Of a DNA stretch of 64,000 nt, positions 7,052 to 58,996 are shown one piece after another (within the stretch, counting starts at the first letter, position 1; every line of letters starts with the position of its first letter). The notes beneath the pieces are model-generated. The model made no database searches, was not told the DNA's origin, and was given only the letters and a program-made list of their open reading frames with translations. The stretch spans positions 1,450 to 65,449 of the forward strand of contig JAZRNQ010000170.1 in NCBI GenBank assembly GCA_045648285.1, given 5' to 3'. This stretch comes from Bacteroidales bacterium (GTDB lineage: Bacteria; Bacteroidota; Bacteroidia; Bacteroidales; F082). A program made the position numbers and the translations under genes.

Positions 7052-7072
7052 ACAAACCATAACAACAACAAA

Positions 7073-9165: not shown

Positions 9166-9244
9166 AAGTAAAAAGTTAAACCAATGGTGCAAAATTAACT
9201 GAATAGATTTGCAATCTAAGTATAACTTTTAATCGATTACAAGT

Positions 9245-9790: not shown

Positions 9791-9794
9791 TAAT

Positions 9795-10769
9795 ATGACA
9801 ACAAACAATGATGATTTATCAAATAAAGATGTTGAAGTAAAAGAGCAACAACCTACGACGACTTATGCTGAATTATATGAAAAGCTCTATCCCAAACCTG
9901 ACACCGAACAGTTAAAAAAGAATGCTAAGCATGCGAGGACACGCAATATTATTGCAGCTCTCGGTGATGGTATTTCTGCAATAGCCAATCTGCACTATAC
10001 GACTAAAGGTGCACCTAACATGTATGACGGGAAAAGTACATTGACTGCCAAATCGCAAGCGAGATATGACAAGTTAATGCAAGATTATAAGGATAACCTT
10101 GACAAATACAAACAAGGACAGTTAAAAGCAGAGCAGCTTGACAAAGAGTGGAATCACAGAGCTGAACGGGAAAAAGTAGCCGATGATCATTGGGATAAAT
10201 CGCACCAGTTAGGTTTAGACAAATTTGAGTACCAGAAAGGACGTGATAAAGTAGCCGATGAGCATTGGGAAAAGGATTATACATATCGAGAAAATCGTGA
10301 TAATCAAAGTCAAGAAAACTGGGAAAAAACTTATGATTTGCAAAAACAAACCCAACAAGATAATAAACAATTCCGACAAGACCAAATTGACGCACAAAAT
10401 AGGCGTACGGAAGCTACAAGAGCTAAAGGTGTAAGAGGCAAGGAAACTGTATTCTCCGATGGCAAAGGCAATAATGTAATTATTTATGACAATGTATGGA
10501 AAGGTTCCAAACAATCAGTCATAAATGCATTGAGCGAGGACCCTCAATTTCAAGATAATCACACCTTTAGTAGAATAACCGAAGGATACGCCACCAAAGA
10601 CGAAGTTGATAATTTCATAAATCAAAACTGGTACAAATCTGATAAGGCAAAAGCGATCATGCTTACTTTATCACAACTTGATCCTGCGACAATGACATCT
10701 GAGATAGATAACGATTCTAAAGAACTCAACTGGGGAAGTAGTAATAATAATCAAGATTTAGATTGGTAA
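9795..10769 (+). CDS. Phage protein with Trp-containing internal repeats
   Basis: In-frame ATG at 9795, preceded by ggagga and 5 nt after the previous stop. Repeats REKVADDHWDK / RDKVADEHWEK / NQSQENWEK. Its stop lies 1 nt before the giant ORF start. Confidence 0.55.
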   Translation: MTTNNDDLSNKDVEVKEQQPTTTYAELYEKLYPKPDTEQLKKNAKHARTRNIIAALGDGISAIANLHYTTKGAPNMYDGKSTLTAKSQARYDKLMQDYKDNLDKYKQGQLKAEQLDKEWNHRAEREKVADDHWDKSHQLGLDKFEYQKGRDKVADEHWEKDYTYRENRDNQSQENWEKTYDLQKQTQQDNKQFRQDQIDAQNRRTEATRAKGVRGKETVFSDGKGNNVIIYDNVWKGSKQSVINALSEDPQFQDNHTFSRITEGYATKDEVDNFINQNWYKSDKAKAIMLTLSQLDPATMTSEIDNDSKELNWGSSNNNQDLDW

Positions 10770-10770
10770 T

Positions 10771-13700
10771 ATGAATGAGATAGAAGTAAAGAAATTGTAC
10801 AACGCTTTAATCCAAAAAGGCTATACCATTGACCAGATAGGTAATGAAAACACTTTCTTAAACAATATGAATGATGAAAACAAACGTAGGGATTTATACG
10901 AATATGTTTCATCTAAAGGTAATTTTAAAATAGGTGATTATGATACATACGAAAGTCGTTTGACATCATCTATAGAACAAACAACAGACACTATCGCTCA
11001 ACCTTCCAATCCTGTGGAGGATGTGAAGCAGGTCTACACTCCTAAATACACACCTCGTACTGAAGAAGTTAAGGAAATTGACATGATTACAGGGCATAAA
11101 ACTGAGTATGCTACAGGTTTTGGACAAGGTTTTAGGCAAGGTATAAAAGGTCTTGGTCATGGCATTCAACATTTCGGAGGTGAAGTATTGAATCTTTTTA
11201 CAGGCAGCACTATTGACGAAGAAAAGGCACTTGAACGAATTGCCGAACTTGAACTTGATGGTATTGATATAGAATCTGCCATCGCACCTTTGGATAAGGT
11301 ACAGAGACAGGTCTATGAAACCACGCTAAGTAATGGTGATGTGCAATTATCAGGCATTACTGACGAACAAAAGCAATATGCTCAAATGGCCTTGGAAAAA
11401 GACGCCATTAACAAAACCATCAGAGAGTATATTGAGAAAGCTGGCAGTCTTGAAGAAGCAAAATCAATGCTTGCTGAGAGAGCTAATGAAGAGACACAAG
11501 GAGATAAATGGATAAAGCAAGCCGCTAAAGGACTCGCAGAGCTTAAACCGACAAAAGGTTTTGGAGCATGGGTCGGAAATCTCGCACCTCAAATGATACC
11601 AGCAGCTGTTTCTATTGGTGTAGGTGCTGTTACAAAAAGTCCTACATTAACCAAAGGAGTCGGCATGGTTGGTATGGGAACAATGACTGTTTCAACAGCA
11701 GGTATGTCTATGAACGAAGCAAGAGAAGCTGGTGCTACAGGATTGCAGACATGGGCAGTCGGTATTGCTGATGGTGCCATTGAGTTTGTATCTGAAAAAA
11801 TTCCATTCAACAGATACACATCAAGACTTCTGTCTGGAGTAAAGAAAAATGCAAGTAATCAACTTGCGGATGCTGTCACCAGTTCCCCACAAGTCCGTAA
11901 TGAATTGGAAAGATTGTTACAGGAAGCCAACAAAAAACTTGGCGGCAAACTCTTCAACGGCAAGAATGTAAAAGATTTTGTAGGCGACATTATCGCTGAA
12001 GGTGCGTCGGAATTTACAGCGGAAGCATTACAGACCATAACACCTTTGATATATGAAAATCCTGAAGACTACCCTACTATCGGAGAAATACTCCGTAATG
12101 GATGGGAAGGAGCAAAAGCAGGTATATTCATGGGTTCTGTTCTCGGTGGCGCTTCAAAGACCATGGAGCATTACCAGCAAAGAAACCGTCGCAAAGAACA
12201 AGGTTTTGTTGATATTGTAGAATTTGAAACTGAAGATGGATACAAGATTGGTGAATCTTTAGGAATGACAGACAGAGGTGTTGCAGTGATTACTGACGGT
12301 AAAATCCAATATGTAATACCAGAAGACATTATCTATGATCATAAATTCTCATTCGAAGAATTCGACAGAGCTGAATTGCAGATGGAGAATGAAGAATCGT
12401 TCGACAATGGTTACTCCCTCAGTGAGCAGCAGGAAATGAACGATGCCCAAAACATGCTTAAAGTCAAAAAAGCAGAAATGATCCATACATTCGGTTTTAC
12501 TGATGAATCTGACATCGAAGCATTCCTCGGTGAAAATCCTATCGAGACTGTCGCACAAAGAAGACAGAATGGAGAAAGTGAAGAAAGCACACAGACTATC
12601 ATTGACTATCTCAACGCCAAAGCAACATACGACGGCATGTCACAGCGTGTCAGTGACGACATTGACGGACAAATAGAGCAAAGCAATGCGCTCATCGATT
12701 CTCATACAAACAAGCATACAGGCAAGATTCACGGAGCTGTATCTAAAGAAGACGGCAGACTTGTTTATATCGTCTCAGGCAATGTCGTTCCTTATCAAGA
12801 TGGTTCAGGCATCGACTTGCAGAATTCGGACGAAAACATCATCATCAGAGATGCTGAGACTGGAGAATTGAAACAGATGTCACCTGAGTTCCTTTCTTCC
12901 TTATACGACACACAAGACCCTAACGAGCAGAAGGAAATCAACGCCCAGCAGATAAGAGAAAAGATTCTTTCAGAAGAAAGCAACAAGATTGACGGTGTCG
13001 TTGACTTCAACGACAAGGAGCAGTTCCTTAACGAAGTTGCAAACAAGATTGCCATTACAATAATACTCGCACAAAGAGGCCTTGACGCAGATTACATCAA
13101 GACATTCCTTGGCAATGCTCAGATTGTCGAGAATCCTGACGGAACACTGACTTTCACTGACGGACAGAACGAAGTCGTTGTACCTAAACAGGAAATACAG
13201 CAGCAGGTTGACGCTAACAACATGCAACGTGCCGTTGACTTCAACGACAAGGCTAAAGAAATGCGCAATGCCATCCAACAGGCAACAGCAGCAACAGCAA
13301 CTCTTTCTTATGGAATGGGAGACAATGTTTCATTAAGAGACACTGACGGCAATATCATCAACGGAACTATATCTATGATAGAAGACGACACTTATGTCAT
13401 AGATTACAGCGACAATAACGGCACATGGCATACTCTTGATCTGACCAAACAGCAGCTTGACGATATGGCCGTTGAGCGCAACGAAACAGGAGTAAATGAC
13501 GAACCGGTTACGGAATTGTCACCGGTTGACATGAATAATGATAACACTATAACTGAACAATCTACCACTGACGAAGGAGATTTAACGCTACAATCTACCA
13601 TTGACGAGAATATTCCAACAACTCAGACTGTCACTCCATATATTCCTAAAGACGAATCCGGCAATCCTATTTACGAGCAGGCTGACAGCGAAACGGCTTG

Positions 13701-16700
13701 GGACGCTCTTATGGAAGATGCTGAAGGCGACGAAATAATGGCTGGCGAAGTTGCCAAATCAATGATCGCTGACAAAGAAGCGGAACTCAAGAAACTTGAA
13801 AAGAGCAAAATCAAGGAAGGCAAGACTCCTGCCGAGAAAATGGCAGCTCTTAAAGAACGTAAAGCTGAAGTTGAAAAAATCAAGCAAGATATCGAAGCAT
13901 GGAAGAAAATTGCGGCAGTTCCTATCCATAGACAGATTGCACAGCAGGAACGCATACGTCAGGAAGAAGCAGAAGCAGCCGCACAACGCAAAGCTGATGA
14001 AGAACGTTTGTTGGCTGAACGTAAAGAAGCTGAACGCAAGGAACAAGAAAAGCTCAACGGCATTCCTGACTATTCAGAAGATACTCCGCAGAACGCCCGT
14101 GCAAGAGGCTACAGACGTGTGAATGGCCATATAGAAGAACGCCAGCAACCAATAGAAACGATACAAGGCAAGGAAACAGAAATCGAGTTCAGCAACGATG
14201 CAAGACCTAAAGGTCATTATGCCGTGATAGACGCTTCTCAACTCCAGCCAAGCCACATTCAAGGCAACCGCAATCCTTTGCACTTCCTTGACGAAGCACA
14301 GCCGAAGGAACGCAACGACAAGGCAAGCATCGTTTCCGCACAGAAGATTGCAGGCAACATCAGACCGGCAACAATCACTACAGGAGAGACTGCATACGTC
14401 GGCACTCCTACTGTCAATACCCGTGGAGAGGTTATCCAAGGCAACAGCAGAAGCGACGCATTGAAACTTATGTACGGCAATCATAATGACCAAGCACAGA
14501 CTTACAAGCAATACCTTATGGACAAAGCAGAGCAGTTCGGATTGAATCCAGAAGATGTTTCCAATATGGAAAGTCCTGTTCTCGTCCGTATGCTTGATAT
14601 CAATGATGAGCAGGCAATCACACTCGGACAATATGTGGCGCAAGACACCGAAAGCGGTGGTATAGAACGTATCAAGCCAAAGAACGCAGTCAAGAAGATG
14701 GGTGAAGACATAGGTTCTTTTGCAAATATTTTGTTAAAGAGCAACGACGAAGACGTATCTTTTGCTGAGCTTTTGGACCAGAATGGTGTCGAGGTGCTTA
14801 AATGGATGGCTCAGAAAAGCTACATCACTCCTACTCAATATAACAGTCAATTCGACACAAAGGGAAGTCTTACAGCAGAAGCAAAGAACGACCTTCGTGG
14901 CATTATGTACCAAAGCATATTTGAAGGCGGGAACACACGTCTCGAAGAGATGTTCAACGCCTTGCCTGCAAAGGCACAGAAAGCCATACTTGCTACAGCT
15001 CACAGAGACTTCAACAGTCCGAATAGCGAACGCATGATTGAGGAAATACAGGACTCTATCCGTGCTTTCTATGCGCTTATGCAAGACGAACAGTTTGCTC
15101 AGGCAAAGAATTTAAAAGATGCAACAAAGGCTGTAGAAGCATGGCAAAAGCAATATCAGATGGACGATGTTACTGGAGAAGGATATCTTCCTTCTGAAAA
15201 ATTTAGTAACTTTGCATTGCACTTGGCGAAGCTGTATAAGGGTGAAAAACAATCAAACATCCAAGGTGTATTCGCTGAATTATACGACCTTATCCAAGGG
15301 ACCAAAGAAGATAATCTGTTTGAGCAAGCAGACAAGACACCTCGCACGCTCGTACAGGCAATTAAGGAAGTTTTAAATATAGATTATAATGGACAACGGA
15401 GAAATAATGTATTGGGTGGCGATAATAAAACAAGCCAACAAGGGCAACACGGACGCACAGGAGATGTTGCAAGCAGAGAACGAACTGAGAGCGGAGAACA
15501 ATCTGCCAACGATTCAGGAAGAACTGATGAAGATAGTGGAAGCTCAGCCTTTGAAACTAATAGACAGACTGAAAATGAGAGCGGAGATATTAGGACCGCA
15601 CAAACCGTACATCAATCCAGATCCGAACGAGAAGGACTTGAACAAAATCTTGATGGAAGACGGCAAACAGACGGCACAGGAATGGCTGATGACGCAGCCG
15701 GAATCATGGAGACCAGAAATGACCGAAGCGATATACGAGTGTTTGAAGAGGGGTTGGACGCTTCATACAATGAGTATTCAGAGCACAGCGAGAGAACTCG
15801 ACGCGCAGCGGAATCCGAAAGGCTGGTAAGCCTTGCCAAGCTGCACGGAATGTTTGTTCCTGCCGAAGTTATCAAGACTTTGACAGGTAAGCATCCAAAA
15901 CGCACAGGCGAGAGCTTTGTTTATATAGACAAAGAAGCAGGCAAGGTTACAAAGGTAAAAGACCCATATGCCAAAGCTGCTATTAAAAGCGGTGTTCAGC
16001 CAGAAGATGCTGCCTTTGAATACCTTGTACATAATCTCATATTCCCTGAAACAGCATATACATTTGAGGGTATCAGCGAAGATATGGGTGATGTTCGTAT
16101 TGTCTTATCACAAAGTTTCATTCAATCAAAAGGACATCCTACAAAAGAACAAATTGCCGAAGCACTTGCAGAACGTGGATTGTTCCCTGAAGACAAGTAC
16201 TCTTTTGGCAATGAGTTCGTGTCTGTAACCGATGTTGAAGGTGACAATGTTATCTTAGGCGAAGATGGCAACTTGTACTTCATTGACCCTATCATACGTT
16301 TCAAGAAGCCGTTGAAAGAGATTCTTGACAACTACAACAGAAACAATAACAGCACACTTGGCGAACAAATCAAATCAGCCGAAAAAGAAGTCAACACCTC
16401 TCCTACCGACAAACAGAAAGAAGCAGGCAATTACAAGAAAGGTCATGTTCAGATAGGAACATTCAACATTACCATAGAACAGCCTAAAGGTTCTGTGCGT
16501 AGCGGCGTGGACGCTAACGGCAGGAAATGGGAAACCACAATGCAGAACACCTATGGTTACATCCGTGGCACCGAAGGCGTGGACGGCGACCATATAGACG
16601 TATTCCTATCAGATGACATTGACGGATGGAACGGCAGCAAGGTGTTTGTCGTTGACCAGTATAACGAAGACGGCACTTTCGACGAACACAAGGTAATGCT

Positions 16701-19700
16701 TGGATTCAACACTATCGAAGAAGCCGAGTCCGCATATCTTGCCAACTACGAAAAAGGATGGGAAAAGAAACATAAGATTGTGGTCTCTCCTATCCATACC
16801 GAGAATTTTGAGAAATGGATAGAGTCCTCACATCGCAAAACTAAACCATTTGCGGAGTACAAGAGTGTGAAATCGGAAGAAAATCGTACAAAAAACAACG
16901 AAAATCGTACAAAATCCACGGAAAACAGCAGTAAAGTTGAGGAAAATTCGGTTAAAGATGAATCCAAAAATAAAACCATTGTCGAACAGTCAAAGAAACC
17001 TTCTTCCAAAATAGAAGACTTCGGAGAAAAGATCGGAGGTGCAAGAAAAGATGTAATCCGCAAATATGCCGACAAAATCAACGTCAACGGAACCACATTC
17101 GGTTCTATGTTCCCTAAACCTGACATCGACAAACTCATTGAAGCAGGTCTTCCTATCGACAGAGTCGCTGCATTGAAGTCCGTGTACGATAATGCAAAGC
17201 ACGAGTTTGAACGAAGCAAGAAGCATCGTGGCAAAGAAAGAGCATTGAGAGAAACAGTATTCTATGCCGTATTTGCGAAAGGAATATTATCTGGCAACGA
17301 GGACTTTGAACTACACCATGAAGGTCTCGTCTTTACAGAAGTCGGAGTAAAACTCGTGAAAGCAAATATTGCATTATATCAGGCGGTATTTGACAGATTG
17401 GGTGTTGAATACATCAAGACTGACCTAAGCGCATATGCAATCACTCCACTAACTGAAGAGACAAAGAAGAAACTGAATCTCAAGAGTCTAAATGAACATA
17501 ACGGAAAAATGCAGGAGTCGCTTGCCAAACGTAAAGGCACGGAACCGCCTGTATATAAAGATGGTGACTTAATCAACTTTATCGGAGAAAAATACTACAA
17601 TCCAAAAGACCAGTTCGAGACGCTTGAAGAGGCTATTGATACAATGGTAGAACGCATAGGAAAAGAAGTAAAAGTCGGAGAAGAAATCAAGCATACTCCT
17701 ATCTTGTATTGGAATGTAGATGCTCTTGGAAGAAAAGATTACTCCAAAATATTCATAGGCATCAAGGTTCACGGACACGGCATTGTTAAGCTTATGGAAT
17801 TCAAGTCAAGCAATGAAGCGAACAGTTGGATAGACGAACATGACTCCGACTTCCAACAGATGGCAGCTGCTAAAATAGAACAGCTCAAGTCCGACAAGAG
17901 CAAACCTTTGCCTAAATACCGTATCGACAACATATATGTCCGTGATAATAATGGTTCTATAGTGCGTTATGATGTATATGCGGACTTCGGTAAAGGCATA
18001 ATGCGTCCTCTCAAAAGTTTTGACATACCGGCAAAAGAAACATCTCAAGAAAGATTGAGAGCGCAAAGCGAAGTTTACAAGAATGAGGTGTTGCCATACA
18101 TGAATTCCGAAGAAGCAAAGCAGTCTGCTGACGAACATGCAAGACTCATACAGCAGGAGAAGGAATCCAAGAACAGAAACTACTCTACAGAAAGAAAGAG
18201 CCGTGAACGTGTCGGAAGAGACTGGAGAAACGGCAAGGACGCAACACCTGACATGTTTGTTGATATGGACGGTAACAAGTCCGTATTCGGATTCAGAGCT
18301 GTAGAGTTCGGTAACTATGTAACCAACAAGGAACGCCAGCAGTTCCTCAACGACATTTACGATGCGCTGATGGATATGAGTGATGTTCTTGGCGTATCAC
18401 CTCGTGCATTGTCACTTGGCGGACAACTTGCCATAGCAGTAGGCGCACGAGGCAAAAGTTCGGCATCAGGACATTATGAACCTGAAAAGAACGTCATTAA
18501 CCTTACCAAAACTAGCGGTTACGGCATACTTGCGCATGAGTGGCTCCATGCATTTGACAGATACTTCTCAAACTACAATCCTTCCGCCATCTATGTAGGC
18601 GGCGTTCAATACGCTACAAGCGAGGAATATAAAGACGATATGCGCCAGGAAGTCAAAGATGCATTTGCCGCATTAATGGATGTCATAAAGAAAAGCGACT
18701 ACTACAAACGTTCAATGATGCTCGGTGAATACTGGTCGTCTGATAAGGAACTTGCAGCACGAGCATTGCAGGACCATATCATACGCAAACTCAACGAAAG
18801 AGGTCAAAAGAATGAATTCCTTTCTAATCTCACCGCTACCGAAGACTGGGACGGCGAGGCTGAAAACTATCCATTCCCTCTTGGAGAAGAATCGGAACGT
18901 ATCGGCGAAGCGATAGACAATCTGTTCTCTGTCATAGAAGAAAAGGTTGACGAGAAAGGAAATACCGTCATGTACCAGAAAGGCAAACTTGTAATGGATG
19001 CCGAAAGCGAAGCGTTCAGACGTGCAACTGAAAGGACGATGAAGCAGCTTGAAAGCATCGGAATTGACGTTGAGATTGTTGAGGATGTTGCTATTATTGA
19101 AAAATTTGAAAATAGAGCAATTAGACCTAATTTTTCTCGCTCGGCAGGTATTTTCTATTCCAACGCAAAGAAAGCGGTGCTTGACATCAAGCAGGACAAG
19201 GCGACTCCGGAGCAATGGTTGAAGATGATTGAAAAGAACGGTGGACTTAAAGCAAGCGAGGATAGATGGCTTGGTCTTTCAGACTGGTTGAAAACACAAC
19301 AAAAAAGAAAGAATATTGATGTTCAATACGCAAAAGAGTATGATGGCGAAGCTAAACAAATAGCTCATGGAATCAAAGAGGGTGACATTTCTTCTATTGA
19401 TTTAGCTGCTGTAGAAATGGTAAAACTTGTAAAAGACGGAGATATATTGATACCTATCCCATCAAGAACAGGTAAAGCCACAACGACTCTTGCGTTGGCT
19501 AATAGAATCGCAGAATTAGCTGGCAAAGGAAAGGTTGCAGATGTATTGACTGGAAAGGAAAGAGAATCCTTATATAACATCAAAAAGGAAGGAAAAGAAT
19601 TACCTAAAGCGTCAGAACTTGAATTTGTCTTAAAAAATCAAGATGTCTTGAACGGCAACAACAGAGTAGTTTTTGTTGACAATGTAATGGGAACGGGAAC

Positions 19701-22700
19701 CACACTTGAAGCAGCTGTAGAACTTATTCCTAATGCTACTGCTCTGGTTTATGCAAAAGACAATTCTACACTATCCGATAAAAAGACTCTTACCAAAGAC
19801 GAAATCCTTAATTTTATAAACGAGAACTCTATACAGATTGAAGAGGTTGAATATGAAGAAAATCCAAGTTCGTTTGATGAATTAAAAGATGAATATGAAA
19901 GACTTCTTAGAGAAGAAGGGTATGATTATGCGCAGGAAGTCATGAGAGACCGTTATGGCGATGATTTCGATGTCGCTTTTGCTGATATGGGCGGAGAACT
20001 CGTAATAGACAATGAAGAAGCTGCAGCGACATTGCTTGGCAGTAACAATATCATCAACTCTACCCGACTTCAATACACCACCGAAGGTCTTGATAACAAG
20101 AAAGAAATTGCACTTGTCGTTCCTACTATAGAATCGTACAATAGTCATGACGAGATCCACTTCGGTGATGCCGGTGACGGTCGAGCTGTTGCATGGGTTA
20201 GATTCGGAGAGACTACGGACAGTGATGGCAAGCGTGTGCTTGTGATTGACGAGATTCAATCTAAGAGACATCAGGACGGAAGAGAAAAGGGATATAGAAA
20301 CGATAAGGTTTTGACCGCTCGTCTAGACGCATTGAAAGAAAGTGCAGCTAAAGTAGGAATGACATTCAATGCAGATGTTAGAGGTCGCTCACTTCAATTT
20401 CTTGACATGGAGGGAAATCCTATTGGGACAATAACCCGCAAGCCAACTGATGAACAAAGTGAAATAATGGCACAAGTAAGAAATGTGCTATTCACCAATG
20501 ACGGCGTCCCTTCTGCCCCATTTGAGAAGAATTGGCAAGAACTCGCCATGAAACGTATGCTACGCTATGCCGCTGAAAACGGATTTGATAAAGTGGCATG
20601 GACTACTGGAGAACAGCAGGCAGAGAGATATAGTCTCAGTAAAGCTGTAAAAAAAACAACTGTATCCGTTATGTCTGACAACACAAGAATGGTTACACTT
20701 GATTTCCGTCATGATGAAGGATATATGGACTTCAAGCAGATGCGTGTTGATGAAAAAGGCACTATCATAGGAGGTGACTTTACAGGTTCACAGTTATCAG
20801 ATATTGTCGGAAAAGAGTTCGCAATCAAGATAATGAGTGTAGAAGCAGAAAGAGAGACATTTACTGACAATGATTTAAGAATCGGAGGTGAAGGCATGAA
20901 AGGATTCTATGACAAGATCCTTCCTTCTTTCGTAAGCAAATACACCAAGAAATGGGGCGGTAAAGTCGAAGAGACCGAATTGCCTGAAACAGGTTTGAGC
21001 ATGCATTCCGTTGATGTCACGCCTCAGATGAAGGAAGATGTCATGAAAGGACAGCCGATGTTCCATAAAGGTCAGATGTCTTTTGATTTCTTGAATCAAC
21101 AAAATACACCTTTATCTGATACAAGACTGCGTAAACTTGAAGAAGGTGAAACAAGTAAAATCGAGAGAATCTTTACTGAAAACAAGAACTTTGATTTCAC
21201 TTCAGGCGAAAAGATTGAATCTATTGATGATGTCGCATTTATCTTCAAACAACTGGAAGATGAAAGCATTGAGAATTCATTCGCCGTATTGGTAAAAGAC
21301 GGCAAACCTACAGTCATACATCTCGGTATGGGGTCATACACAGCAACAGGATTGAACGGATCCGCACTCAATGTAGCTGTAGAACGCATACAACCTGACA
21401 AGATTTATTTCATACACAACCATCCTTCAGGCAATCTAACCGCTTCTCGTCAAGATATAGAGCTCTTGAACAGATTGAAAAGCACCTACGGAGATATTTT
21501 TGAAGACGGTATCATTATAAATCTCCGCTCGGGCAAGTTCGCAACATTTAACGCTGAGGAAAAAAACATACATGATGAGAAAAACATCGACAACGCTGTA
21601 CCTGTAAAAGTGTATTCTTTCAATAAGCAAGTATTTGAAAAGAATTATGATCCAGCAGAGACTTTCAAAATAAGGAGTTCATCTGACGTGGCAAAATTTA
21701 TATCTTCACATAGATTGGGCGAAAGACCTAAATTGGGCATACTTGTCTGCAATAATCAGCTCGGAGTCGTTGGCAATGTGTTTACACCATACACTAAGGT
21801 AACCAAAGAAAATGCAAAAGATATTGCAAAAGATATCGTTTACTATACCACTTCTATGGGCGGTACATGTGCTATGATGTTCGGAAATGCCAATATATAT
21901 GAAGTTGGAAGTAAACGTATATCACAACACGTTGAAGATATTTCTACTGGATCCATTAAATTGATGGATTATCTCAATATGCAGAAAGACGGTTCCTATT
22001 GGAGTGCTTCTGATGAAGGAGTCAGTTTCATGCGTACTTCAAGCGGAACAATATACGGATGGACCGTTGACGGCAAGGTCTATCTTACTAAAGACGGTAT
22101 CAACCCGAACACTCCTGTTCATGAATACAGTCACTTATGGGCAGAAGCATTGATGAAAAACAATCCTTTTCTATGGAGTCGTATCGTCAATGGTCTAAAA
22201 GACACTCCTGTATGGAACGAAGTGATGTTGGATGAAGAATATTCAAGCATTCATCATAACGACAATCTCGTTGCAAGTGAAGTGCTGTCCCGTCTTAGCG
22301 GAACAGAGAACTATCGCCGTACTATGGAAGAAGCACAAAGAGAGATTGAATCTGAAAAAGGCATATTCGCAAAGGCAGAGAAGATTACTATTTGGGAACG
22401 TGTAAAGCAAGCATTGAAGGACTTTTGGAACTGGGTCGTCAAGACCTACGGCACAAATAACATCACTCCTGAAGAAGCTGTCAATATGACCTTGAAGGAC
22501 TTCTGGAACGGAGTAAAACCGAAAGGTGCAAGAAGCATTGAAGCTGCCAGCGATATCGCTAATGCAGAAGAAGACGATGAAGTTTTATATAGAAGTGATA
22601 ATGAAGATAGTTTAAATAAAAATAAAGTTAATTATCCAGCTCAACGCAGACAGATGGTTGAGCATGCAGAAAATCTTGCAAAGAGACTGCATCTTGACAA

Positions 22701-25700
22701 CATCGAAATAGTGAACAGCGTGAGCGGTTTGGAAGGAAAGAAGAAATCCGCTAAAGGCTTCTACGACCCTAAGACAGGTAAAATCACAATTGTCATACCT
22801 AACAACACAAGCATAGCAGACATCGAGAAGACATTGCTTCACGAAGCTGTCGCTCACTATGGCTTGCGTCAATTATTCGGGGAACACTTTGACACTTTCC
22901 TTGATAACGTTTACAACAATGCTGACGAGAGCATCCGCAAGCGCATCGCAGAACTCGCCATTAGAAAGTACAACTATGATTTCCGCAAAGCTACTGAAGA
23001 ATATCTTGCATCTCTCGCTGAAAGCACCAACTTTGAGAATGCTCAGCAGTCAAGCTGGTGGCAAAAGGTTAAAGACTTCTTCGCTGATATGCTCAGCAAG
23101 TTAGGATTTAGGGATTTCAGAGGAGTTACTCTTACTGACAACGAACTTCGTTATATCCTATGGAGAAGCTATGAGAACCTTTCTTCTAAAAGACATAAAG
23201 GCGTATTCGGACAAGCAGCTGATATTGCGAAACAATATGAACTTGGCGTAGGTGACTATGCCAAGTCGTCAGAAAACGAAGATGATGTTTTGTTCAGAGA
23301 CGGAGATCCTGAGATTCATGAGAAGGAGTTGGTAAGAGACAAATACGACAGACGTATAAGAACAGGCTGGTATCAGTCAAAAGAAGCCATGCAGGATTCT
23401 ATGCTTTCACTCAAAGAAGCGATGAAAGATATTGCAGGTATGGAAATTGAAGATATTGACGGTTTTGAAAATGCCTATCTCGGGGAAAACCGTCTGTCAA
23501 GCGTCAACAAAGCGGAAGCAGACGCTTTTGCTCGCATATTGTTCAAGCCAATGCTTGATGAAGTTGCTAAATTAGCACCTACAGCAGCGGAAAGACAAGA
23601 ACTCGTTGACTATATGATGGCTAAACATGGTCTTGAACGTAACGAGTATATGAGACAGCAGGCTATGCAAAACGGCGAGGACGCTAACCGTGACTTCGCA
23701 GGTCTGACATCTCTTACAGGTTTTGATGATATAACAGCAGCGGAGGCAGAAGCGCAAATAATGGTTAATGAATACGAACAGAATCACGATACCACCGAGT
23801 TATGGGATAATGTCAACGCCGTAAGCAAAGCTATTCTTTCCAAAACATACGAATGCGGATTGATAGATAAGGATACGTTTGAAAACATTTCAAATATGTA
23901 TGAATTCTATATTCCATTAAGAGGTTTTGAAGAAAAGACAAGTGATGAAGCATACGCATATCTGTCACATATACACAATGCGTTCAATGCTCCTATCAAG
24001 AAAGCGGAAGGACGTACATCAAAAGCAGATGACCCGTTCGCATATCTCCAGTCAATGGCTGAAAGTGCTATAATGCAAGGCAACAGAAACAAGCTTGTCA
24101 AACAACGCTTCCTCAACTTTGTGCTTAACCATCCAAGCGACCTCGTATCCATCAGCGAACTATGGTTGGAATATGATAATGTCGATGATGAATGGAGACC
24201 TGTTTTCCCTGATAACATTGATACCAATGATTCAGGAGAAGTCGTTGAGCAAAAGATGAAGGACTTTGATGAAAAGATGGAGTTATTGTCGCAAAACGAA
24301 CCTGACAGATACAAGAAAGGCCGTGACGCCATCGGCATTCCTTATAGAGTTGTCGAGAAAAGAGACTTGCAGCAACATCAGGTTATCGTCAAACGCAACG
24401 GAAGAGATGTCGTGCTGACCGTTAACGGCAATCCTCGTTTGGCTCAGGCATTAAACGGACAAACCAATCCTGACAACGACATGTCCGGTGCTATTGGCAC
24501 AATACTCCGTAGTGGAGAATGGGTTAACAGACAGCTGAGCGCATTCTATACCACTCGCAACCCTGACTTTATCGTTTCAAACTTCCTGAGAGATATGCTG
24601 TACTCAAATTCAATGGCTTGGATCAAGGAATCCCCTAACTACGCATTGCGTTTCAACAGAAACTATATGATAGCAAATCCTATAACTATGAAACGCTTGT
24701 TGAACAAGTATCGCAAAGGCACGCTTGACACAAGTGATAAAATAGAAGGCATGTTCTATCAGTTTATGATGAATGGTGGAGAAACAGGATATGCCAATGT
24801 AAGAGATATTGAACAACATAAGAATGACATACGCAAAGAATTAAGAAGATCTAACGGCAGACTCAAAATTGGACGTGCGTTTAGTCTGTTGGCAGAACGT
24901 TTCGATGGACTCAACAGGGCTATTGAAAACTGTGCTCGTTTCGCTGCATTCATGACTTCCAAGGAAATGGGCAGAACTACAGACCGAGCCATTTATGACG
25001 CAAAGGAAATCTCCGTAAACTTCAACAAGAAAGGCAGTGGCTCAAAATTCTACGGAGAAATAGGGCAAACAGTTGCTGGCAATACTTCATCGTTAATATC
25101 AGGTTTAGGTCGCAGCAGTTATGTTTTCTGGAATGCAGCAATTCAAGGTACAACTAATTTCGGAAGACAAATCAAACGTCATCCAGCAAAGGCATTCACA
25201 GGAATAGCGTCAATGTTCCTTCTCGGTGCTCTTGTTGCTTTCTTAGGCGGTGACGATGATGACGACGACAATAAGAATTCATACTACAATCTTCCAGAAT
25301 ATGTAAGACGCAGTAATATTCTGTTCAGTGCAGGCAAACACTGGATTTCAATACCATTGCCAGTTGAATACAGAGCAATATACGGATTAGGAGAATTGAT
25401 GATATCTACAATTAGTGGCAAAGAACACTTAACTGACAGTGAAATCGCTGAAGCTATTATCGGCCAAATGTCACAAATACTACCTTTGGACTTCATGGAA
25501 GGCGGTGGCGATTTGAATGCAGTTGTGCCATCAGCCGCAAAACCATTATGGGAAGCATATGTCGCAGAAAAAAGTTGGACCGGTTTGCCTTTATATAAAG
25601 ACACCCCATACAACAAGAATATGCCAGAATGGACCAAGGCATACAGCAGCGCAAACAAGCATATCGTAAACCTAACAGCTTCATTAAACGAAGTAACAGG

Positions 25701-26214
25701 AGGTGACAGATATACAAAAGGTAATATTGATATCAATCCTTCAAAAATAGAATATGTGCTCAAAGGCTATTTCGGAGGTGTATTCAACACAATAGACAAG
25801 ATGGCGAAAATGGCTGAGACAGCAGCTGGAGAAAGAGAATATGACCCTCAAAATTTCTTATTGCTTAACAGAGTTGTCAAAGCTGGCGACGAGCGTACTG
25901 AATACAGGGCTGTTAATAACGAATATTTCCGATTAAAGAAAGAGCATGACGATCTTAAATCTCGTATTAAAAATTACGAAAATGATACTTATAATGGAAT
26001 ATTCGATTATGCTAACAAAATTGATTTTCTTTATAATTCTCCTGAATATCAAAGATACGAAATCTTTGAACTATACAAAAAAGAAATCGAATCTTTGAAC
26101 GATATGATAAAGAACACTTATGATAATGATGAACGAAAAGAACTTGAAACATATCTCAACGAAATCAAAAAAGAGATGATTGAAGAAATGAACAAGACAC
26201 GCAAACGTGCGTAA
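10771..26214 (+). CDS. Giant polyvalent (multi-effector) virion protein, 5147 aa
   Basis: Uninterrupted 15,444-nt ORF. It contains serial enzymatic motifs (listed as separate sub-features) separated by low-complexity and coiled-coil linkers. It lies between small virion-type genes and the portal gene. Confidence 0.85.
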   Translation: MNEIEVKKLYNALIQKGYTIDQIGNENTFLNNMNDENKRRDLYEYVSSKGNFKIGDYDTYESRLTSSIEQTTDTIAQPSNPVEDVKQVYTPKYTPRTEEVKEIDMITGHKTEYATGFGQGFRQGIKGLGHGIQHFGGEVLNLFTGSTIDEEKALERIAELELDGIDIESAIAPLDKVQRQVYETTLSNGDVQLSGITDEQKQYAQMALEKDAINKTIREYIEKAGSLEEAKSMLAERANEETQGDKWIKQAAKGLAELKPTKGFGAWVGNLAPQMIPAAVSIGVGAVTKSPTLTKGVGMVGMGTMTVSTAGMSMNEAREAGATGLQTWAVGIADGAIEFVSEKIPFNRYTSRLLSGVKKNASNQLADAVTSSPQVRNELERLLQEANKKLGGKLFNGKNVKDFVGDIIAEGASEFTAEALQTITPLIYENPEDYPTIGEILRNGWEGAKAGIFMGSVLGGASKTMEHYQQRNRRKEQGFVDIVEFETEDGYKIGESLGMTDRGVAVITDGKIQYVIPEDIIYDHKFSFEEFDRAELQMENEESFDNGYSLSEQQEMNDAQNMLKVKKAEMIHTFGFTDESDIEAFLGENPIETVAQRRQNGESEESTQTIIDYLNAKATYDGMSQRVSDDIDGQIEQSNALIDSHTNKHTGKIHGAVSKEDGRLVYIVSGNVVPYQDGSGIDLQNSDENIIIRDAETGELKQMSPEFLSSLYDTQDPNEQKEINAQQIREKILSEESNKIDGVVDFNDKEQFLNEVANKIAITIILAQRGLDADYIKTFLGNAQIVENPDGTLTFTDGQNEVVVPKQEIQQQVDANNMQRAVDFNDKAKEMRNAIQQATAATATLSYGMGDNVSLRDTDGNIINGTISMIEDDTYVIDYSDNNGTWHTLDLTKQQLDDMAVERNETGVNDEPVTELSPVDMNNDNTITEQSTTDEGDLTLQSTIDENIPTTQTVTPYIPKDESGNPIYEQADSETAWDALMEDAEGDEIMAGEVAKSMIADKEAELKKLEKSKIKEGKTPAEKMAALKERKAEVEKIKQDIEAWKKIAAVPIHRQIAQQERIRQEEAEAAAQRKADEERLLAERKEAERKEQEKLNGIPDYSEDTPQNARARGYRRVNGHIEERQQPIETIQGKETEIEFSNDARPKGHYAVIDASQLQPSHIQGNRNPLHFLDEAQPKERNDKASIVSAQKIAGNIRPATITTGETAYVGTPTVNTRGEVIQGNSRSDALKLMYGNHNDQAQTYKQYLMDKAEQFGLNPEDVSNMESPVLVRMLDINDEQAITLGQYVAQDTESGGIERIKPKNAVKKMGEDIGSFANILLKSNDEDVSFAELLDQNGVEVLKWMAQKSYITPTQYNSQFDTKGSLTAEAKNDLRGIMYQSIFEGGNTRLEEMFNALPAKAQKAILATAHRDFNSPNSERMIEEIQDSIRAFYALMQDEQFAQAKNLKDATKAVEAWQKQYQMDDVTGEGYLPSEKFSNFALHLAKLYKGEKQSNIQGVFAELYDLIQGTKEDNLFEQADKTPRTLVQAIKEVLNIDYNGQRRNNVLGGDNKTSQQGQHGRTGDVASRERTESGEQSANDSGRTDEDSGSSAFETNRQTENESGDIRTAQTVHQSRSEREGLEQNLDGRRQTDGTGMADDAAGIMETRNDRSDIRVFEEGLDASYNEYSEHSERTRRAAESERLVSLAKLHGMFVPAEVIKTLTGKHPKRTGESFVYIDKEAGKVTKVKDPYAKAAIKSGVQPEDAAFEYLVHNLIFPETAYTFEGISEDMGDVRIVLSQSFIQSKGHPTKEQIAEALAERGLFPEDKYSFGNEFVSVTDVEGDNVILGEDGNLYFIDPIIRFKKPLKEILDNYNRNNNSTLGEQIKSAEKEVNTSPTDKQKEAGNYKKGHVQIGTFNITIEQPKGSVRSGVDANGRKWETTMQNTYGYIRGTEGVDGDHIDVFLSDDIDGWNGSKVFVVDQYNEDGTFDEHKVMLGFNTIEEAESAYLANYEKGWEKKHKIVVSPIHTENFEKWIESSHRKTKPFAEYKSVKSEENRTKNNENRTKSTENSSKVEENSVKDESKNKTIVEQSKKPSSKIEDFGEKIGGARKDVIRKYADKINVNGTTFGSMFPKPDIDKLIEAGLPIDRVAALKSVYDNAKHEFERSKKHRGKERALRETVFYAVFAKGILSGNEDFELHHEGLVFTEVGVKLVKANIALYQAVFDRLGVEYIKTDLSAYAITPLTEETKKKLNLKSLNEHNGKMQESLAKRKGTEPPVYKDGDLINFIGEKYYNPKDQFETLEEAIDTMVERIGKEVKVGEEIKHTPILYWNVDALGRKDYSKIFIGIKVHGHGIVKLMEFKSSNEANSWIDEHDSDFQQMAAAKIEQLKSDKSKPLPKYRIDNIYVRDNNGSIVRYDVYADFGKGIMRPLKSFDIPAKETSQERLRAQSEVYKNEVLPYMNSEEAKQSADEHARLIQQEKESKNRNYSTERKSRERVGRDWRNGKDATPDMFVDMDGNKSVFGFRAVEFGNYVTNKERQQFLNDIYDALMDMSDVLGVSPRALSLGGQLAIAVGARGKSSASGHYEPEKNVINLTKTSGYGILAHEWLHAFDRYFSNYNPSAIYVGGVQYATSEEYKDDMRQEVKDAFAALMDVIKKSDYYKRSMMLGEYWSSDKELAARALQDHIIRKLNERGQKNEFLSNLTATEDWDGEAENYPFPLGEESERIGEAIDNLFSVIEEKVDEKGNTVMYQKGKLVMDAESEAFRRATERTMKQLESIGIDVEIVEDVAIIEKFENRAIRPNFSRSAGIFYSNAKKAVLDIKQDKATPEQWLKMIEKNGGLKASEDRWLGLSDWLKTQQKRKNIDVQYAKEYDGEAKQIAHGIKEGDISSIDLAAVEMVKLVKDGDILIPIPSRTGKATTTLALANRIAELAGKGKVADVLTGKERESLYNIKKEGKELPKASELEFVLKNQDVLNGNNRVVFVDNVMGTGTTLEAAVELIPNATALVYAKDNSTLSDKKTLTKDEILNFINENSIQIEEVEYEENPSSFDELKDEYERLLREEGYDYAQEVMRDRYGDDFDVAFADMGGELVIDNEEAAATLLGSNNIINSTRLQYTTEGLDNKKEIALVVPTIESYNSHDEIHFGDAGDGRAVAWVRFGETTDSDGKRVLVIDEIQSKRHQDGREKGYRNDKVLTARLDALKESAAKVGMTFNADVRGRSLQFLDMEGNPIGTITRKPTDEQSEIMAQVRNVLFTNDGVPSAPFEKNWQELAMKRMLRYAAENGFDKVAWTTGEQQAERYSLSKAVKKTTVSVMSDNTRMVTLDFRHDEGYMDFKQMRVDEKGTIIGGDFTGSQLSDIVGKEFAIKIMSVEAERETFTDNDLRIGGEGMKGFYDKILPSFVSKYTKKWGGKVEETELPETGLSMHSVDVTPQMKEDVMKGQPMFHKGQMSFDFLNQQNTPLSDTRLRKLEEGETSKIERIFTENKNFDFTSGEKIESIDDVAFIFKQLEDESIENSFAVLVKDGKPTVIHLGMGSYTATGLNGSALNVAVERIQPDKIYFIHNHPSGNLTASRQDIELLNRLKSTYGDIFEDGIIINLRSGKFATFNAEEKNIHDEKNIDNAVPVKVYSFNKQVFEKNYDPAETFKIRSSSDVAKFISSHRLGERPKLGILVCNNQLGVVGNVFTPYTKVTKENAKDIAKDIVYYTTSMGGTCAMMFGNANIYEVGSKRISQHVEDISTGSIKLMDYLNMQKDGSYWSASDEGVSFMRTSSGTIYGWTVDGKVYLTKDGINPNTPVHEYSHLWAEALMKNNPFLWSRIVNGLKDTPVWNEVMLDEEYSSIHHNDNLVASEVLSRLSGTENYRRTMEEAQREIESEKGIFAKAEKITIWERVKQALKDFWNWVVKTYGTNNITPEEAVNMTLKDFWNGVKPKGARSIEAASDIANAEEDDEVLYRSDNEDSLNKNKVNYPAQRRQMVEHAENLAKRLHLDNIEIVNSVSGLEGKKKSAKGFYDPKTGKITIVIPNNTSIADIEKTLLHEAVAHYGLRQLFGEHFDTFLDNVYNNADESIRKRIAELAIRKYNYDFRKATEEYLASLAESTNFENAQQSSWWQKVKDFFADMLSKLGFRDFRGVTLTDNELRYILWRSYENLSSKRHKGVFGQAADIAKQYELGVGDYAKSSENEDDVLFRDGDPEIHEKELVRDKYDRRIRTGWYQSKEAMQDSMLSLKEAMKDIAGMEIEDIDGFENAYLGENRLSSVNKAEADAFARILFKPMLDEVAKLAPTAAERQELVDYMMAKHGLERNEYMRQQAMQNGEDANRDFAGLTSLTGFDDITAAEAEAQIMVNEYEQNHDTTELWDNVNAVSKAILSKTYECGLIDKDTFENISNMYEFYIPLRGFEEKTSDEAYAYLSHIHNAFNAPIKKAEGRTSKADDPFAYLQSMAESAIMQGNRNKLVKQRFLNFVLNHPSDLVSISELWLEYDNVDDEWRPVFPDNIDTNDSGEVVEQKMKDFDEKMELLSQNEPDRYKKGRDAIGIPYRVVEKRDLQQHQVIVKRNGRDVVLTVNGNPRLAQALNGQTNPDNDMSGAIGTILRSGEWVNRQLSAFYTTRNPDFIVSNFLRDMLYSNSMAWIKESPNYALRFNRNYMIANPITMKRLLNKYRKGTLDTSDKIEGMFYQFMMNGGETGYANVRDIEQHKNDIRKELRRSNGRLKIGRAFSLLAERFDGLNRAIENCARFAAFMTSKEMGRTTDRAIYDAKEISVNFNKKGSGSKFYGEIGQTVAGNTSSLISGLGRSSYVFWNAAIQGTTNFGRQIKRHPAKAFTGIASMFLLGALVAFLGGDDDDDDNKNSYYNLPEYVRRSNILFSAGKHWISIPLPVEYRAIYGLGELMISTISGKEHLTDSEIAEAIIGQMSQILPLDFMEGGGDLNAVVPSAAKPLWEAYVAEKSWTGLPLYKDTPYNKNMPEWTKAYSSANKHIVNLTASLNEVTGGDRYTKGNIDINPSKIEYVLKGYFGGVFNTIDKMAKMAETAAGEREYDPQNFLLLNRVVKAGDERTEYRAVNNEYFRLKKEHDDLKSRIKNYENDTYNGIFDYANKIDFLYNSPEYQRYEIFELYKKEIESLNDMIKNTYDNDERKELETYLNEIKKEMIEEMNKTRKRA
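11557..11800 (+). other. Giant protein: Gly/Ala/Met-rich hydrophobic (TM-like) region
   Basis: GFGAWVGNLAPQMIPAAVSIGVGAVTKSPTLTKGVGMVGMGTMTVSTAGMSM...WAVGIADGAIEF. Confidence 0.5.
14212..14700 (+). other. Giant protein: ParB/Srx-fold (ddrB-ParB-like) domain
   Basis: GHYAVIDASQLQPSHIQGNRNP...RGEVIQGNSRSDALKLMY. The GNxR box in a ParB-like context is recalled from polyvalent-protein ParB domains. Confidence 0.45.
15820..16310 (+). other. Giant protein: protein-kinase-like fold domain
   Basis: Catalytic-loop-like DVEGDN (D-x4-N, D1821/N1826), followed 10 residues later by YFIDP (DFG-equivalent Asp). Preceded by ...FVYIDKEAGKVTKVKDPY (candidate Lys region). Confidence 0.4.
16411..16860 (+). other. 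Giant protein: inorganic-pyrophosphatase-like domain
   Basis: GNYKKGHVQIGTFNITIEQPKGSVRSG...YGYIRGTEGVDGDHIDVFL. DGDHIDV resembles the family I PPase signature D-x-D-[PE]-x-D-x but has His at the fourth position. Confidence 0.4.
18211..18810 (+). other. Giant protein: zincin metallopeptidase (MPTase-PolyVal-like) domain
   Basis: FGFRAVEFGNYV...LSLGGQLAIAVGARGKSSASGHYEPEKNVINLTKTSGYGILAHEWLHAFD (HExxH at 18535-18549) ...DKELAARALQDHI. Confidence 0.55.
19341..19765 (+). other. Giant protein: phosphoribosyltransferase (PRTase, ComF-like) domain
   Basis: PRPP-loop motif VVFVDNVMGTGTTLEAAV, preceded by ILIPIPSRTGKATTTLALA. It lies between WLGLSDWLK and TLTKDEILNFINENSIQIEEVEY, which looks like an insertion into a linker. 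Confidence 0.55.
21175..21555 (+). other. Giant protein: JAB/MPN (RadC-like) metallopeptidase domain
   Basis: ENSFAVLV...IYFIHNHPSGNLTASRQDIELL (HxHPSG...S..D motif; His3549 at 21415). Confidence 0.65.
22021..22330 (+). other. Giant protein: second HExxH zincin-like motif region
   Basis: GWTVDGKVYLTKDGINPNTPVHEYSHLWAEAL (HEYSH at 22120-22134). Confidence 0.4.
25192..25269 (+). other. Giant protein: C-terminal TM helix followed by a hexa-Asp run
   Basis: AFTGIASMFLLGALVAFLGG then DDDDDD (25252-25269). Confidence 0.6.
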
Positions 26215-26288
26215 AGAGTTAAACTTATGATGAGTGCTTGGGGTGTTACATTTGCACCTCGAGTACTCATTTAATTAAGTTAACAACA

Positions 26289-30904: not shown

Positions 30905-31386
30905 TATCTCTGAATAGGTTTGTTCAACAAAGCATAGAATAGGCCTAATACATAACAATACATATGTATCATTCCATTGGTATTAGGCAATAAGAATCCC
31001 AATGCGAGATAGAAAAGCATCCAAGACTGATAGTATGCCTTTCGCTGTACTTCAAACGATATTGAAGCAAACAGAAAGAATACGACACCCGACATTCCAA
31101 GTGTAGGGATATCGCTCAGCATAAACGAAGGCACCGAAACGGCAGCTAAATATGATAGATTTAATCTCAATATGCTAATGTCATAGAGAAATACCACACT
31201 CAACAAGCACCAGGCATTAAGTGAGGCATGTAGTATATTGGCATGAAAGAATGGATATAATAAACGTTCATAATATTCACATTCAGAATACGCCTCGACT
31301 TTATAATCGCTATTCAACAAAGAAGCGACAATAACCAACACCGCTATTACAATAGATGTAATCTTTTCATTCGTTCTCTTATCCAT
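30904..31386 (-). CDS. Compact rhomboid-family intramembrane serine protease
   Basis: 160 aa with about 6 predicted TM segments. TM2 FFHANILHASLNAW (HxxxN), TM4 TLGMSGVVFFLF (GxSG) and TM6 GMIHMYCYVLGLF (catalytic His). Its stop overlaps the terL ATG (TAATG). Confidence 0.65.
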   Translation of the reverse strand: MDKRTNEKITSIVIAVLVIVASLLNSDYKVEAYSECEYYERLLYPFFHANILHASLNAWCLLSVVFLYDISILRLNLSYLAAVSVPSFMLSDIPTLGMSGVVFFLFASISFEVQRKAYYQSWMLFYLALGFLLPNTNGMIHMYCYVLGLFYALLNKPIQR

Positions 31387-58960: not shown

Positions 58961-58996
58961 AATAATTTGTTTTTAAATGTTAGTTAATCATTGTCT

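Follow-up and report, generated by a model that had tools for sequence, protein, structure and literature searches.

The window analysed here is a 64,000-nucleotide stretch of DNA from a Bacteroidales bacterium (GenBank assembly GCA_045648285.1, contig JAZRNQ010000170.1, positions 1,450 to 65,449 of the forward strand), and it contains a prophage in which one gene encodes a giant multi-domain protein of the kind described as polyvalent. The gene is a single ATG-started open reading frame (ORF) of 5147 amino acids (aa) at 10771..26214 on the + strand (all coordinates are those of the window), and spans 24% of the window. No stop codon interrupts the translation, in agreement with the initial annotation of this DNA, which had described one uninterrupted 15.4-kb ORF filling about a quarter of the window, and 5147 stop-free codons are expected by chance with a probability of about 1e-150, computed with the ORF's own base composition. 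The ATG begins one base past the stop codon of the upstream gene, which ends at 10769. The portal gene (26238..28256, +; PHROG 156 1.6e-94, Pfam P22_portal 4.6e-36) lies directly 3' of the giant gene, confirming that the two are neighbours. Continuity of the ORF is further supported because intact homologous ORFs exist elsewhere: in three cultured Bacteroides temperate phages, BS-TP4 (gp3, 5391 aa, PQ571277), BKO1-TP3 (gp55, 5553 aa, PQ571269) and BF1-TP2 (gp68, 3633 aa, PQ571263), whose giant proteins were left uncharacterised (Gut Microbes 2025, PMC12694917); in a public ortholog, P0244, with an intact frame of 5561 aa; and in IMG/VR viral contigs, 10 of 16 of which have an open frame longer than 4500 aa. 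Open frames of 4000–6184 aa are common in related viral contigs.

The domain content was examined by segment, with Pfam run on five overlapping segments of the protein and the other homology searches also made segment by segment, an approach proposed with the initial annotation, and most of the motif-based domain calls made there are supported. The N-terminal leader (aa 1–82, 10771..11016; all parts of the gene are on the + strand) has a twofold 'LYDxL..GY..xG..xF' repeat, matches phrog_24532, and is common to many relatives, including BF1-TP2 gp68, where aa 5–81 show 33% identity; BS-TP4 has a second leader type, 'MPIFEYNG'. This leader may be a packaging signal. It is followed by a conserved N-terminal module (aa 112–540, 11104..12390) which is 36–48% identical to P0232–P0242, has a Gly-rich hydrophobic stretch at aa ~255–345, and matches no Pfam family, and then by a region conserved with BS-TP4 and BKO1-TP3 (aa 542–1140, 12394..14190; 53% identity by BLASTP) that includes a Lys/Glu-rich helical stretch at aa ~990–1090. 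The ParB-, kinase- and pyrophosphatase-like regions that had been recognised by eye are all recovered as Pfam families: a ddrB-like ParB domain (aa 1144–1275, 14200..14595; PF18763, 2.1e-25) with GNSR at aa 1224, Kinase-PolyVal (aa 1680–1845, 15808..16305; PF18762, 3.7e-26), a protein-kinase-like domain without a C-lobe (Iyer 2017, PMC5512222), and InPase, a type I pyrophosphatase-like domain (aa 1881–2018, 16411..16824; PF18823, 1e-53) with DGDHIDV at aa 1938. A phage portal of solved structure (9b41_L, 1.6e-24) carries an InPase match in its C-terminal part, a fusion showing that the domain can reside in capsids. A polar linker, probably disordered as judged by a composition scan (aa 1517–1678, 15319..15804), separates the ParB and kinase domains. 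Within it, the motif 'YNGQRR.NVL.GG' is followed by a Ser/Gly/Asp/Arg-rich stretch (aa 1539–1595, 15385–15555), and the same motif recurs at the extreme N-terminus of another polyvalent protein, P0003 (aa 7–63, 47% identity). The motif might signal a cleavage site or the edge of a domain.

The next part of the chain is an LPD5/zincin/LPD1 block (aa 2071–2770, 16981..19080), detected with Pfam, NCBIfam CLCA_X and phrog_616, and matched by tblastn in 193 phage records, mostly of Stx phages. LPD5 lies at aa ~2447–2498 with an N-terminal part near 2075 (Pfam 6.5e-8), LPD1 at aa 2652–2724 (Pfam 4.6e-14), and the zincin motif HEWLHAFD sits between them (aa 2589, nt 18535–18558). The CLCA_X match around HEWLH (3.4e-36, 125 bits) is below the model cut-off of 260; with LPD5 and LPD1 on either side, it sustains the earlier zincin call. 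The region shows the HExxH-x2-D form and an upstream conserved His (HYEP), and HExxH with an Asp three residues on and an upstream conserved His is a widespread phage-type metallopeptidase form (PMC5512222).

The phosphoribosyltransferase (PRTase) that had been proposed from a phosphoribosyl pyrophosphate (PRPP) loop corresponds to aa 2855–3000 (19333..19770). Taken alone, this region stays below threshold, with 20–21 bits against the Pribosyltran cut-off of 26.3 and weak in-register matches to the APRT, OPRT and PyrR models of NCBIfam, but the call is recovered through a family profile. An exhaustive HMMER search gave 872 relatives of aa 2850–3010, many of them stand-alone proteins of 150–200 aa; 21 of 48 aligned family members match Pribosyltran (best 2.5e-7), and all 20 of the 20 PDB matches of the family profile are type-I PRTases, the best being PyrR (4.9e-4) over most of the fold. 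Since both the family members and the family profile match PRTases, we accept by transitivity that aa 2855–3000 probably adopt a type-I PRTase fold, with a possible PRTase activity. A PRPP-binding loop of this fold has two acidic residues and then (S/T)-G-x-T; in the loop here (VFVDNVMGTGTT; VDNVMGTGT at aa 2969) the leading Asp does not vary among family members, and the consensus has Asn in second place. The 'PSR' arginine of the family, a feature linked to ComFC-like PRTases (PMC5512222), is conserved here as well.

A RadC-like JAB module (aa 3450–3735, 21118..21975) contains the JAMM motif HNHPSGNLTASRQD at aa 3549, in which the H-x-H-x7-S-x2-D metal-binding pattern is intact. The earlier JAB call, made from HNHPSG, agrees with a Pfam RadC match (PF04002, aa 3487–3572; 1.9e-6, 28.3 bits against a cut-off of 22.1), with NCBIfam RadC (3.4e-6), with PDB 2qlc (0.0073), and with 34% identity to P0010. 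The HEYSH module (aa 3751–3920, 22021..22530; HEYSH at aa 3784) is defined by its motif. It was earlier noted as a second HExxH, and it stands as a conserved module with near-invariant residues H40, E41, Y42, H44, W46 and E93 (a Glu ~50 residues downstream), but not as a member of a known peptidase family, its profile matching nothing in PDB or Pfam. All motifs listed in the initial annotation (GNSR, DGDHIDV, HEWLH, VDNVMGTGT, HNHPSG, HEYSH and a transmembrane helix) are present where expected, but it had overlooked a third metallopeptidase-type motif, HEAVAH, within an HExxxH module (aa 3960–4165, 22648..23265; LLHEAVAHYGLR at aa 4024, motif LLHEAVAHYG) that opens the conserved C-terminal region; the HExxxH peptidase type was described in Iyer 2017 (PMC5512222). 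At the level of their motifs, the HEYSH module is a putative zincin-like peptidase and the HExxxH module a putative metallopeptidase. The chain would thus have one supported and two motif-level metallopeptidases, and its cleavage is predicted.

The remainder of the protein is a conserved C-terminal module (aa 4170–5147, 23278..26211; phrog_14770, phrog_10089), as the earlier description of a C-terminal part of about 980 aa with a transmembrane helix had it. The only strong hydrophobic helix is transmembrane-like and lies at aa 4808–4826 (nt 25192–25248); it is followed by a run of six Asp, and both this acidic run and a 'Y..LP.W/Y' motif are conserved. LPD38 lies next to it (aa 4836–5023, nt 25276–25839; Pfam 1.7e-38). 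These last 978 residues are mostly helical in an AlphaFold2 model (pLDDT 72), for which Foldseek finds no neighbour in PDB, the best E-value being 0.9 and all matches unrelated transporters. The module is present in 336 phage records (Stx, Vibrio, Ralstonia, Burkholderia and Bacteroides phages) and in 8 plasmid records.

In total, six Pfam families of the polyvalent set and RadC are above their cut-offs in one ORF, and since these families come from the set of Iyer et al. 2017, the proposed polyvalent-protein reading holds. The absence of methylase or helicase motifs noted earlier also holds, with no match of any segment to methyltransferase families at E up to 0.1 or to helicase families in Pfam and NCBIfam. 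Pfam finds no peptidoglycan hydrolase domain, no RNA polymerase domain and no Phage_Mu_F or MuF_C match in the giant protein, and membership among the MuF-fused effectors is ruled out by the lack of a Phage Mu F / SPP1 gp7 head-morphogenesis domain. When the protein was divided into three and each third compared with PDB by sequence, only the InPase/portal match and the weak RadC match were obtained.

Comparison with relatives, also proposed with the initial annotation as a means of finding swapped modules, separates the protein into a scaffold and a cargo. In BLASTP against BS-TP4 and BKO1-TP3, aa 542–1601 are 53% and aa 1767–2058 52% identical, and aa 3900–5145 are 71% (BS-TP4) and 55% (BKO1-TP3) identical, whereas aa 2058–3900 have no detectable similarity in either. 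The ParB, InPase and C-terminal parts are common to all three cultured phages, and aa 542–1140 to two of them. In place of the central part here, BS-TP4 has a Strawberry-notch-type helicase and a weak, sub-threshold methylase match, BKO1-TP3 an SNF2-type helicase, and BF1-TP2 an ADP-ribosyltransferase (ART)/RNase set consisting of ART-PolyVal and PBECR5. As the ends are conserved and the central cargo differs between relatives, we regard the ends as scaffold and the middle as exchangeable cargo; the conserved scaffold comprises the leader and module at the N-terminus and, at the C-terminus, a block of ~1200 aa that contains the HExxxH motif, the hydrophobic helix and LPD38. Gene order is also maintained, with two small genes, the giant gene and the portal gene in BS-TP4 (L001) and BKO1-TP3 (L002) as here (portal identity ~76%), and the giant gene followed by the portal gene also at locus L005 and at 12 of 16 IMG/VR loci; in BF1-TP2 the portal gene is ~4 kb from the giant gene and on the opposite strand. 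Four IMG/VR contigs (L086, L087, L091 and L092) with portals 50–56% identical to the one in the window have giant ORFs of at least 4700 aa that contain the EIQS cassette described below; at E 1e-10 none of them matches the C-terminal module with LPD38. Even this end of the scaffold may be replaceable.

The domain combination had been considered unmatched, and this does not stand: P0244 is colinear and has the same cargo, with 85–92% identity over aa 788–5145. The associated statement that there is no characterised match is correct to the extent that the cultured-phage relatives are functionally uncharacterised, but closely related giant proteins were already in GenBank. A search with the cargo region gave 1851 relatives, and among the matches listed none covers more than 39% of the query. 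The order InPase, LPD5, zincin/LPD1, HExxxH and LPD38 is very common in prophage proteins of 2.7–2.9 kaa, named 'LPD38 domain-containing protein' at NCBI, and RadC is found together with LPD38, LPD5 and LPD1 in several database proteins. A size of 5147 aa is not exceptional, and HMMER detects the PRTase-like domain in proteins of up to 7387 aa.

The part of the cargo flanking the PRTase-like domain is formed by a widespread cassette, which we refer to as EIQS, consisting of a small N-terminal subdomain (aa 2791–2845, 19141..19305) and the EIQS module proper (aa 3002–3440, 19774..21090; 109 homologues). Its usual setting is in proteins of 600–1150 aa with a HEYTH (consensus) module directly after it. 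Among 116 cassette homologues, ~77 cover aa 2791–2845 and 70 to 100 cover aa 3001–3430, and only one covers aa 2860–2997, from which we conclude that the PRTase-like domain is an insertion into the cassette; the same insertion is present in P0244, P0245 and P0251. The RadC-JAB module is likewise placed between the cassette core and the HEYSH module. The core has an invariant E-I-Q-S..HQ motif (E, Q, S, H, Q) and many conserved polar residues, and belongs to no annotated family. The AlphaFold2 model of the EIQS module is confident (pLDDT 91, pTM 0.84), with no structural neighbour in PDB at E <1e-3 and 24 matches in the BFVD viral structure library, all to uncharacterised large phage proteins. 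Weak matches to the GNAT fold recur in both PDB and BFVD, with TM-scores below 0.3, a hint that is not convincing. The confident predicted fold without a solved neighbour and the invariant polar residues raise the speculative idea, which we think unlikely as a whole, that EIQS is a new enzyme family restricted to phage polyvalent proteins and a landing pad for other domains, within an injected toolkit that destroys or counterfeits nucleotide-based immune signals in Bacteroidales. If this were so, the landing pad would here host the PRTase and RadC-JAB domains, and the ParB-, kinase- and pyrophosphatase-like domains would be their partners. In any event, a widespread and confidently folded module of unknown function is brought to attention.

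The giant gene is part of a region of higher G+C content (0.37–0.45 from ~7.0 to 60.5 kb, against 0.33 in the flanks) with the large terminase (28778..30958, −) and an SU10-type major capsid protein (32714..34123, +) identified by profile searches, together with an endolysin, two DNA methyltransferases, a helicase and a RecT-like protein. Directly behind mnmE, a host gene, lies a tyrosine integrase gene. The MnmE protein shares 89% identity with its counterpart in a Bacteroidales metagenome-assembled genome (MAG) from water-buffalo rectum, its next relatives being from red deer and horse, and colinearity with the water-buffalo MAG ends exactly at the mnmE end; at the other side, the neighbouring MAG contig stops short of the right flank of the window. 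The phage genes, the mnmE boundary and the MnmE relatives indicate a prophage in an uncultured herbivore-gut Bacteroidales bacterium. There are no direct repeats of at least 11 nt between 6700–7150 and 58900–61600 that could represent att sites, no tRNA genes in the window, and no exact match to the portal protein in the contig index. As observed in the initial annotation, no tail tube or tape-measure gene is seen among the annotated genes, and given also the P22-type portal and SU10-type capsid protein, the phage is probably short-tailed.

The two genes 5' of the giant gene encode a 181-aa protein whose N-terminal segment is hydrophobic and Gly-zipper-like (9245–9790, +) and a 369-aa Gln/Lys/Asp-rich protein (9660–10769, +), the latter with a listed TTG start that overlaps the preceding gene, such that the true start may be further in. 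Genes of similar size are at matching positions in BS-TP4, BKO1-TP3 and BF1-TP2 and on a metagenome scaffold, L004, and both may encode further internal or ejection proteins. The early region has two stand-alone DNA methyltransferase genes and a helicase gene (48650–50248, 51151–51963 and 54635–56104, all −), present while the giant protein is without the helicase cargo of BS-TP4 and BKO1-TP3. Just upstream of the large terminase gene, where a small terminase is expected, is a gene for a 160-aa protein (30904–31386, −) with a weak rhomboid-like match (E 0.0028, below the cut-off), and a 'rhomboid' gene is annotated at the equivalent position in BS-TP4, BF1-TP2 and contig L005. A 1001-aa gene with a DUF4886 domain (35425–38430) has a counterpart of ~2640 aa in BS-TP4 and BKO1-TP3 (L001 26961–37477, L002 29559–38103); in these phages a reverse transcriptase gene is downstream of it, directly in BKO1-TP3 and after two small genes in BS-TP4, unlike the present prophage, in which none is found downstream or in the corresponding region. 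The BS-TP4 counterpart, gp14, has been named as a target of a diversity-generating retroelement (PMC12694917), and judging from the genes present such an element seems to be absent here.

The interpretation that best accounts for these observations, to which we assign a probability of roughly 0.8, is that a temperate phage, probably short-tailed, has integrated downstream of mnmE in an uncultured Bacteroidales bacterium and that its giant gene encodes a phage-type polyvalent protein which is packaged and injected. Because homologues have been found in virions and the adjacency to the portal gene is conserved, a few copies would be packed in the capsid near the portal and would exit with the DNA at infection. 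Infection by E. coli phage PTXU04 also depends on a homologue, PTXU04_00025, considered below. In the model of Iyer et al., the conserved C-terminal module would serve in packaging, in passage through the cell envelope, or in both, and the peptidase modules would cut the chain into pieces. The freed enzymes could then act in the first minutes on nucleotides, nucleic acids or host proteins, and host defences would be blunted before any phage gene is expressed.

Several observations weigh against this interpretation. The metagenome scaffold L004 (ENA ERZ28653791 scaffold_13592), which aligns to 9242–14820 of the window with 97.5% DNA identity over the first 4 kb, has a 22-nt deletion at 14219–14240 (~aa 1150, the start of the ParB domain) that shifts the frame, and gene callers break the giant gene after residue 1223; the deletion may represent either a genuine allele in which the gene is disrupted or a fault of the assembly. 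The integrase is also split over two frames (7073–8210), one part (7073–7885) encoding the arm-binding domain, the SAM-like domain and the beginning of the catalytic domain and the other (7920–8210) the rest of it, including HxxR...Y, the split reflecting either a frameshift mutation in a decaying prophage or a sequencing error. With the frameshifted integrase and the L004 deletion variant, the element may be decaying. The short tail and packaging are extrapolated from Proteobacteria phages, to which the C-terminal module has 21–25% identity (~25% for Vibrio phages), and in the structure comparisons this module has no neighbour, making its role a guess. The PRPP loop reads DN as opposed to the DD motif described by Iyer et al. 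(PMC5512222), and the enzymatic activities of the polyvalent-protein versions of these domains are predicted only. Virions of the cultured Bacteroides relatives have been neither imaged nor analysed by mass spectrometry (PMC12694917).

It is possible, though we favour it less, that the protein is mainly a structural ejection protein, with its conserved ends forming or helping to form a DNA channel across the envelope and the enzymes being dispensable passengers or acting on the cell wall in place of defence systems. The universally conserved part is the C-terminal module, which holds the hydrophobic helix, and knock-down of PTXU04_00025, a 2198-aa LPD38-bearing polyvalent protein of E. coli phage PTXU04, strongly lowers plating efficiency (PMC11879866), a requirement for plaques that is more readily explained by a role in structure or delivery than by an accessory one in anti-defence. 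Exactly this channel role has been proposed for gp47 of phage phi24B, a protein with LPD5, LPD1 and LPD38 that is abundant in the virion proteome, absent from the cryo-electron microscopy map, and placed inside the capsid by the authors as a proposed ejection protein (bioRxiv 10.64898/2026.04.10.717836). However, Pfam detects no peptidoglycan hydrolase domain, the cargo domains target nucleotides, nucleic acids or proteins, and swaps to methylase/helicase or ART/RNase cargo are typical of an arms race and not of a channel. A channel role also overlaps with that of a packaged and injected polyvalent protein, and the two are not exclusive.

It is improbable that the protein is a DarB-type antirestriction protein, modifying or shielding incoming DNA against type I restriction. 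The 4647-position profile phrog_10089, 'DarB-like antirestriction', matches aa 1853–2058 and the C-terminal module, and BKO1-TP3 gp55 is annotated as DarB-like antirestriction, but the similarity is confined to the InPase and LPD38 parts and leaves out the catalytic parts of DarB. DarB of phage P1 has methylase (N6-adenine) and helicase (superfamily-2) parts, whereas this protein has neither, in which it also differs from BS-TP4 and BKO1-TP3, and separate DNA methyltransferase and helicase genes are encoded elsewhere in the phage. We therefore reject membership of the DarB group, and because neither a methylase nor a helicase was found, the automatic 'DarB-like' label is, on the evidence of sequence profiles, misleading for this protein. 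Marginally less probable still is an assembly artefact or decaying pseudogene, the real products being several smaller proteins: the 97.5%-identical L004, in which the deletion splits the gene at ~aa 1150, and the frameshifted integrase would fit, but 5147 open codons (1e-150), the intact 5561-aa ortholog, the three cultured-phage homologues, the frames of 4000–6184 aa in related viral contigs, and a domain order colinear with relatives do not. It is barely credible, and we reject the idea, that the polyvalent protein stems from a conjugative element or plasmid and is delivered through a type IV secretion system in place of a virion. The surrounding genes are those for portal, terminase, capsid and endolysin, with no conjugation genes among them; InPase, ddrB-ParB and LPD38 are phage-type-only domains (PMC5512222); RadC is found alongside LPD38, LPD5 and LPD1 in several database proteins; and plasmids seldom carry the C-terminal module.

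Giant polyvalent proteins are regarded as the earliest weapons of a phage to arrive in the cell, and almost none has been tested biochemically, none of them in Bacteroidales. The current picture of these proteins is unchanged by the locus described here, which adds one well-annotated example. Together with the three cultured Bacteroides phages it constitutes a natural swap experiment, in which one scaffold carries different cargo, a nucleotide-enzyme set here as against methylase/helicase or ART/RNase sets, with equal gene order in two of the three. Such swaps could help to assign cargo to individual defence systems of gut bacterial hosts.

Among known systems, BS-TP4, BKO1-TP3 and BF1-TP2 differ from this protein in that their central 1850 aa are unrelated to the LPD5/zincin/LPD1 block, EIQS cassette, PRTase, JAB and HEYSH modules found here. 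Phi24B gp47 (2811 aa) and the LPD38 proteins of Aeromonas, Vibrio and other prophages share the order InPase, LPD5, zincin/LPD1, HExxxH and LPD38, but the protein here is ~2300 aa longer than gp47, with an additional N-terminal region containing ParB and kinase domains and with LPD1 and the HExxxH module separated by ~1100 aa of additional cargo, and in the C-terminal module the identity to this group is only 21–25%. The Bcep22-like Burkholderia podovirus JC1 similarly devotes more than 20% of a temperate short-tailed phage genome to one giant protein, gp69 (4515 aa), which mass spectrometry showed to be virion-associated, with 51 unique peptides and the second-best score in CsCl-purified virions (PMC9144972); LPD38 is mentioned in the same paper, and gp69 differs in having a HepA/SNF2-type helicase match. 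The virion RNA polymerase of phage N4, gp50, is also very large, capsid-packed and injected, and both proteins have zincin-type peptidase modules (PMC5512222), but there is no RNA polymerase domain here. The closest correspondence is with the polyvalent proteins of Iyer et al. 2017 (PMC5512222), with which this protein shares many unrelated effector domains in one chain, a gene located amid virion genes, the phage-type-only InPase, ddrB-ParB and LPD38, a Kinase-PolyVal domain, found mainly in Bacteroidetes and Verrucomicrobia (pro)phages, and both a zincin HExxH-x2-D and a separate HExxxH module; in size it is at the large end and not the largest. Two features are unlike that survey, namely the RadC-JAB domain, listed there as specific to conjugative elements, and a PRTase in Bacteroidales as opposed to mainly Proteobacteria and Verrucomicrobiae, and both are minor departures. 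The testable defining features of a phage-type polyvalent protein are thus present, and packaging would follow by analogy with JC1 gp69 and phi24B gp47. The protein is a well-supported and rather ordinary representative of a class that was known before, the virion-packaged multi-enzyme proteins of phages, and its novelty had earlier been overestimated.

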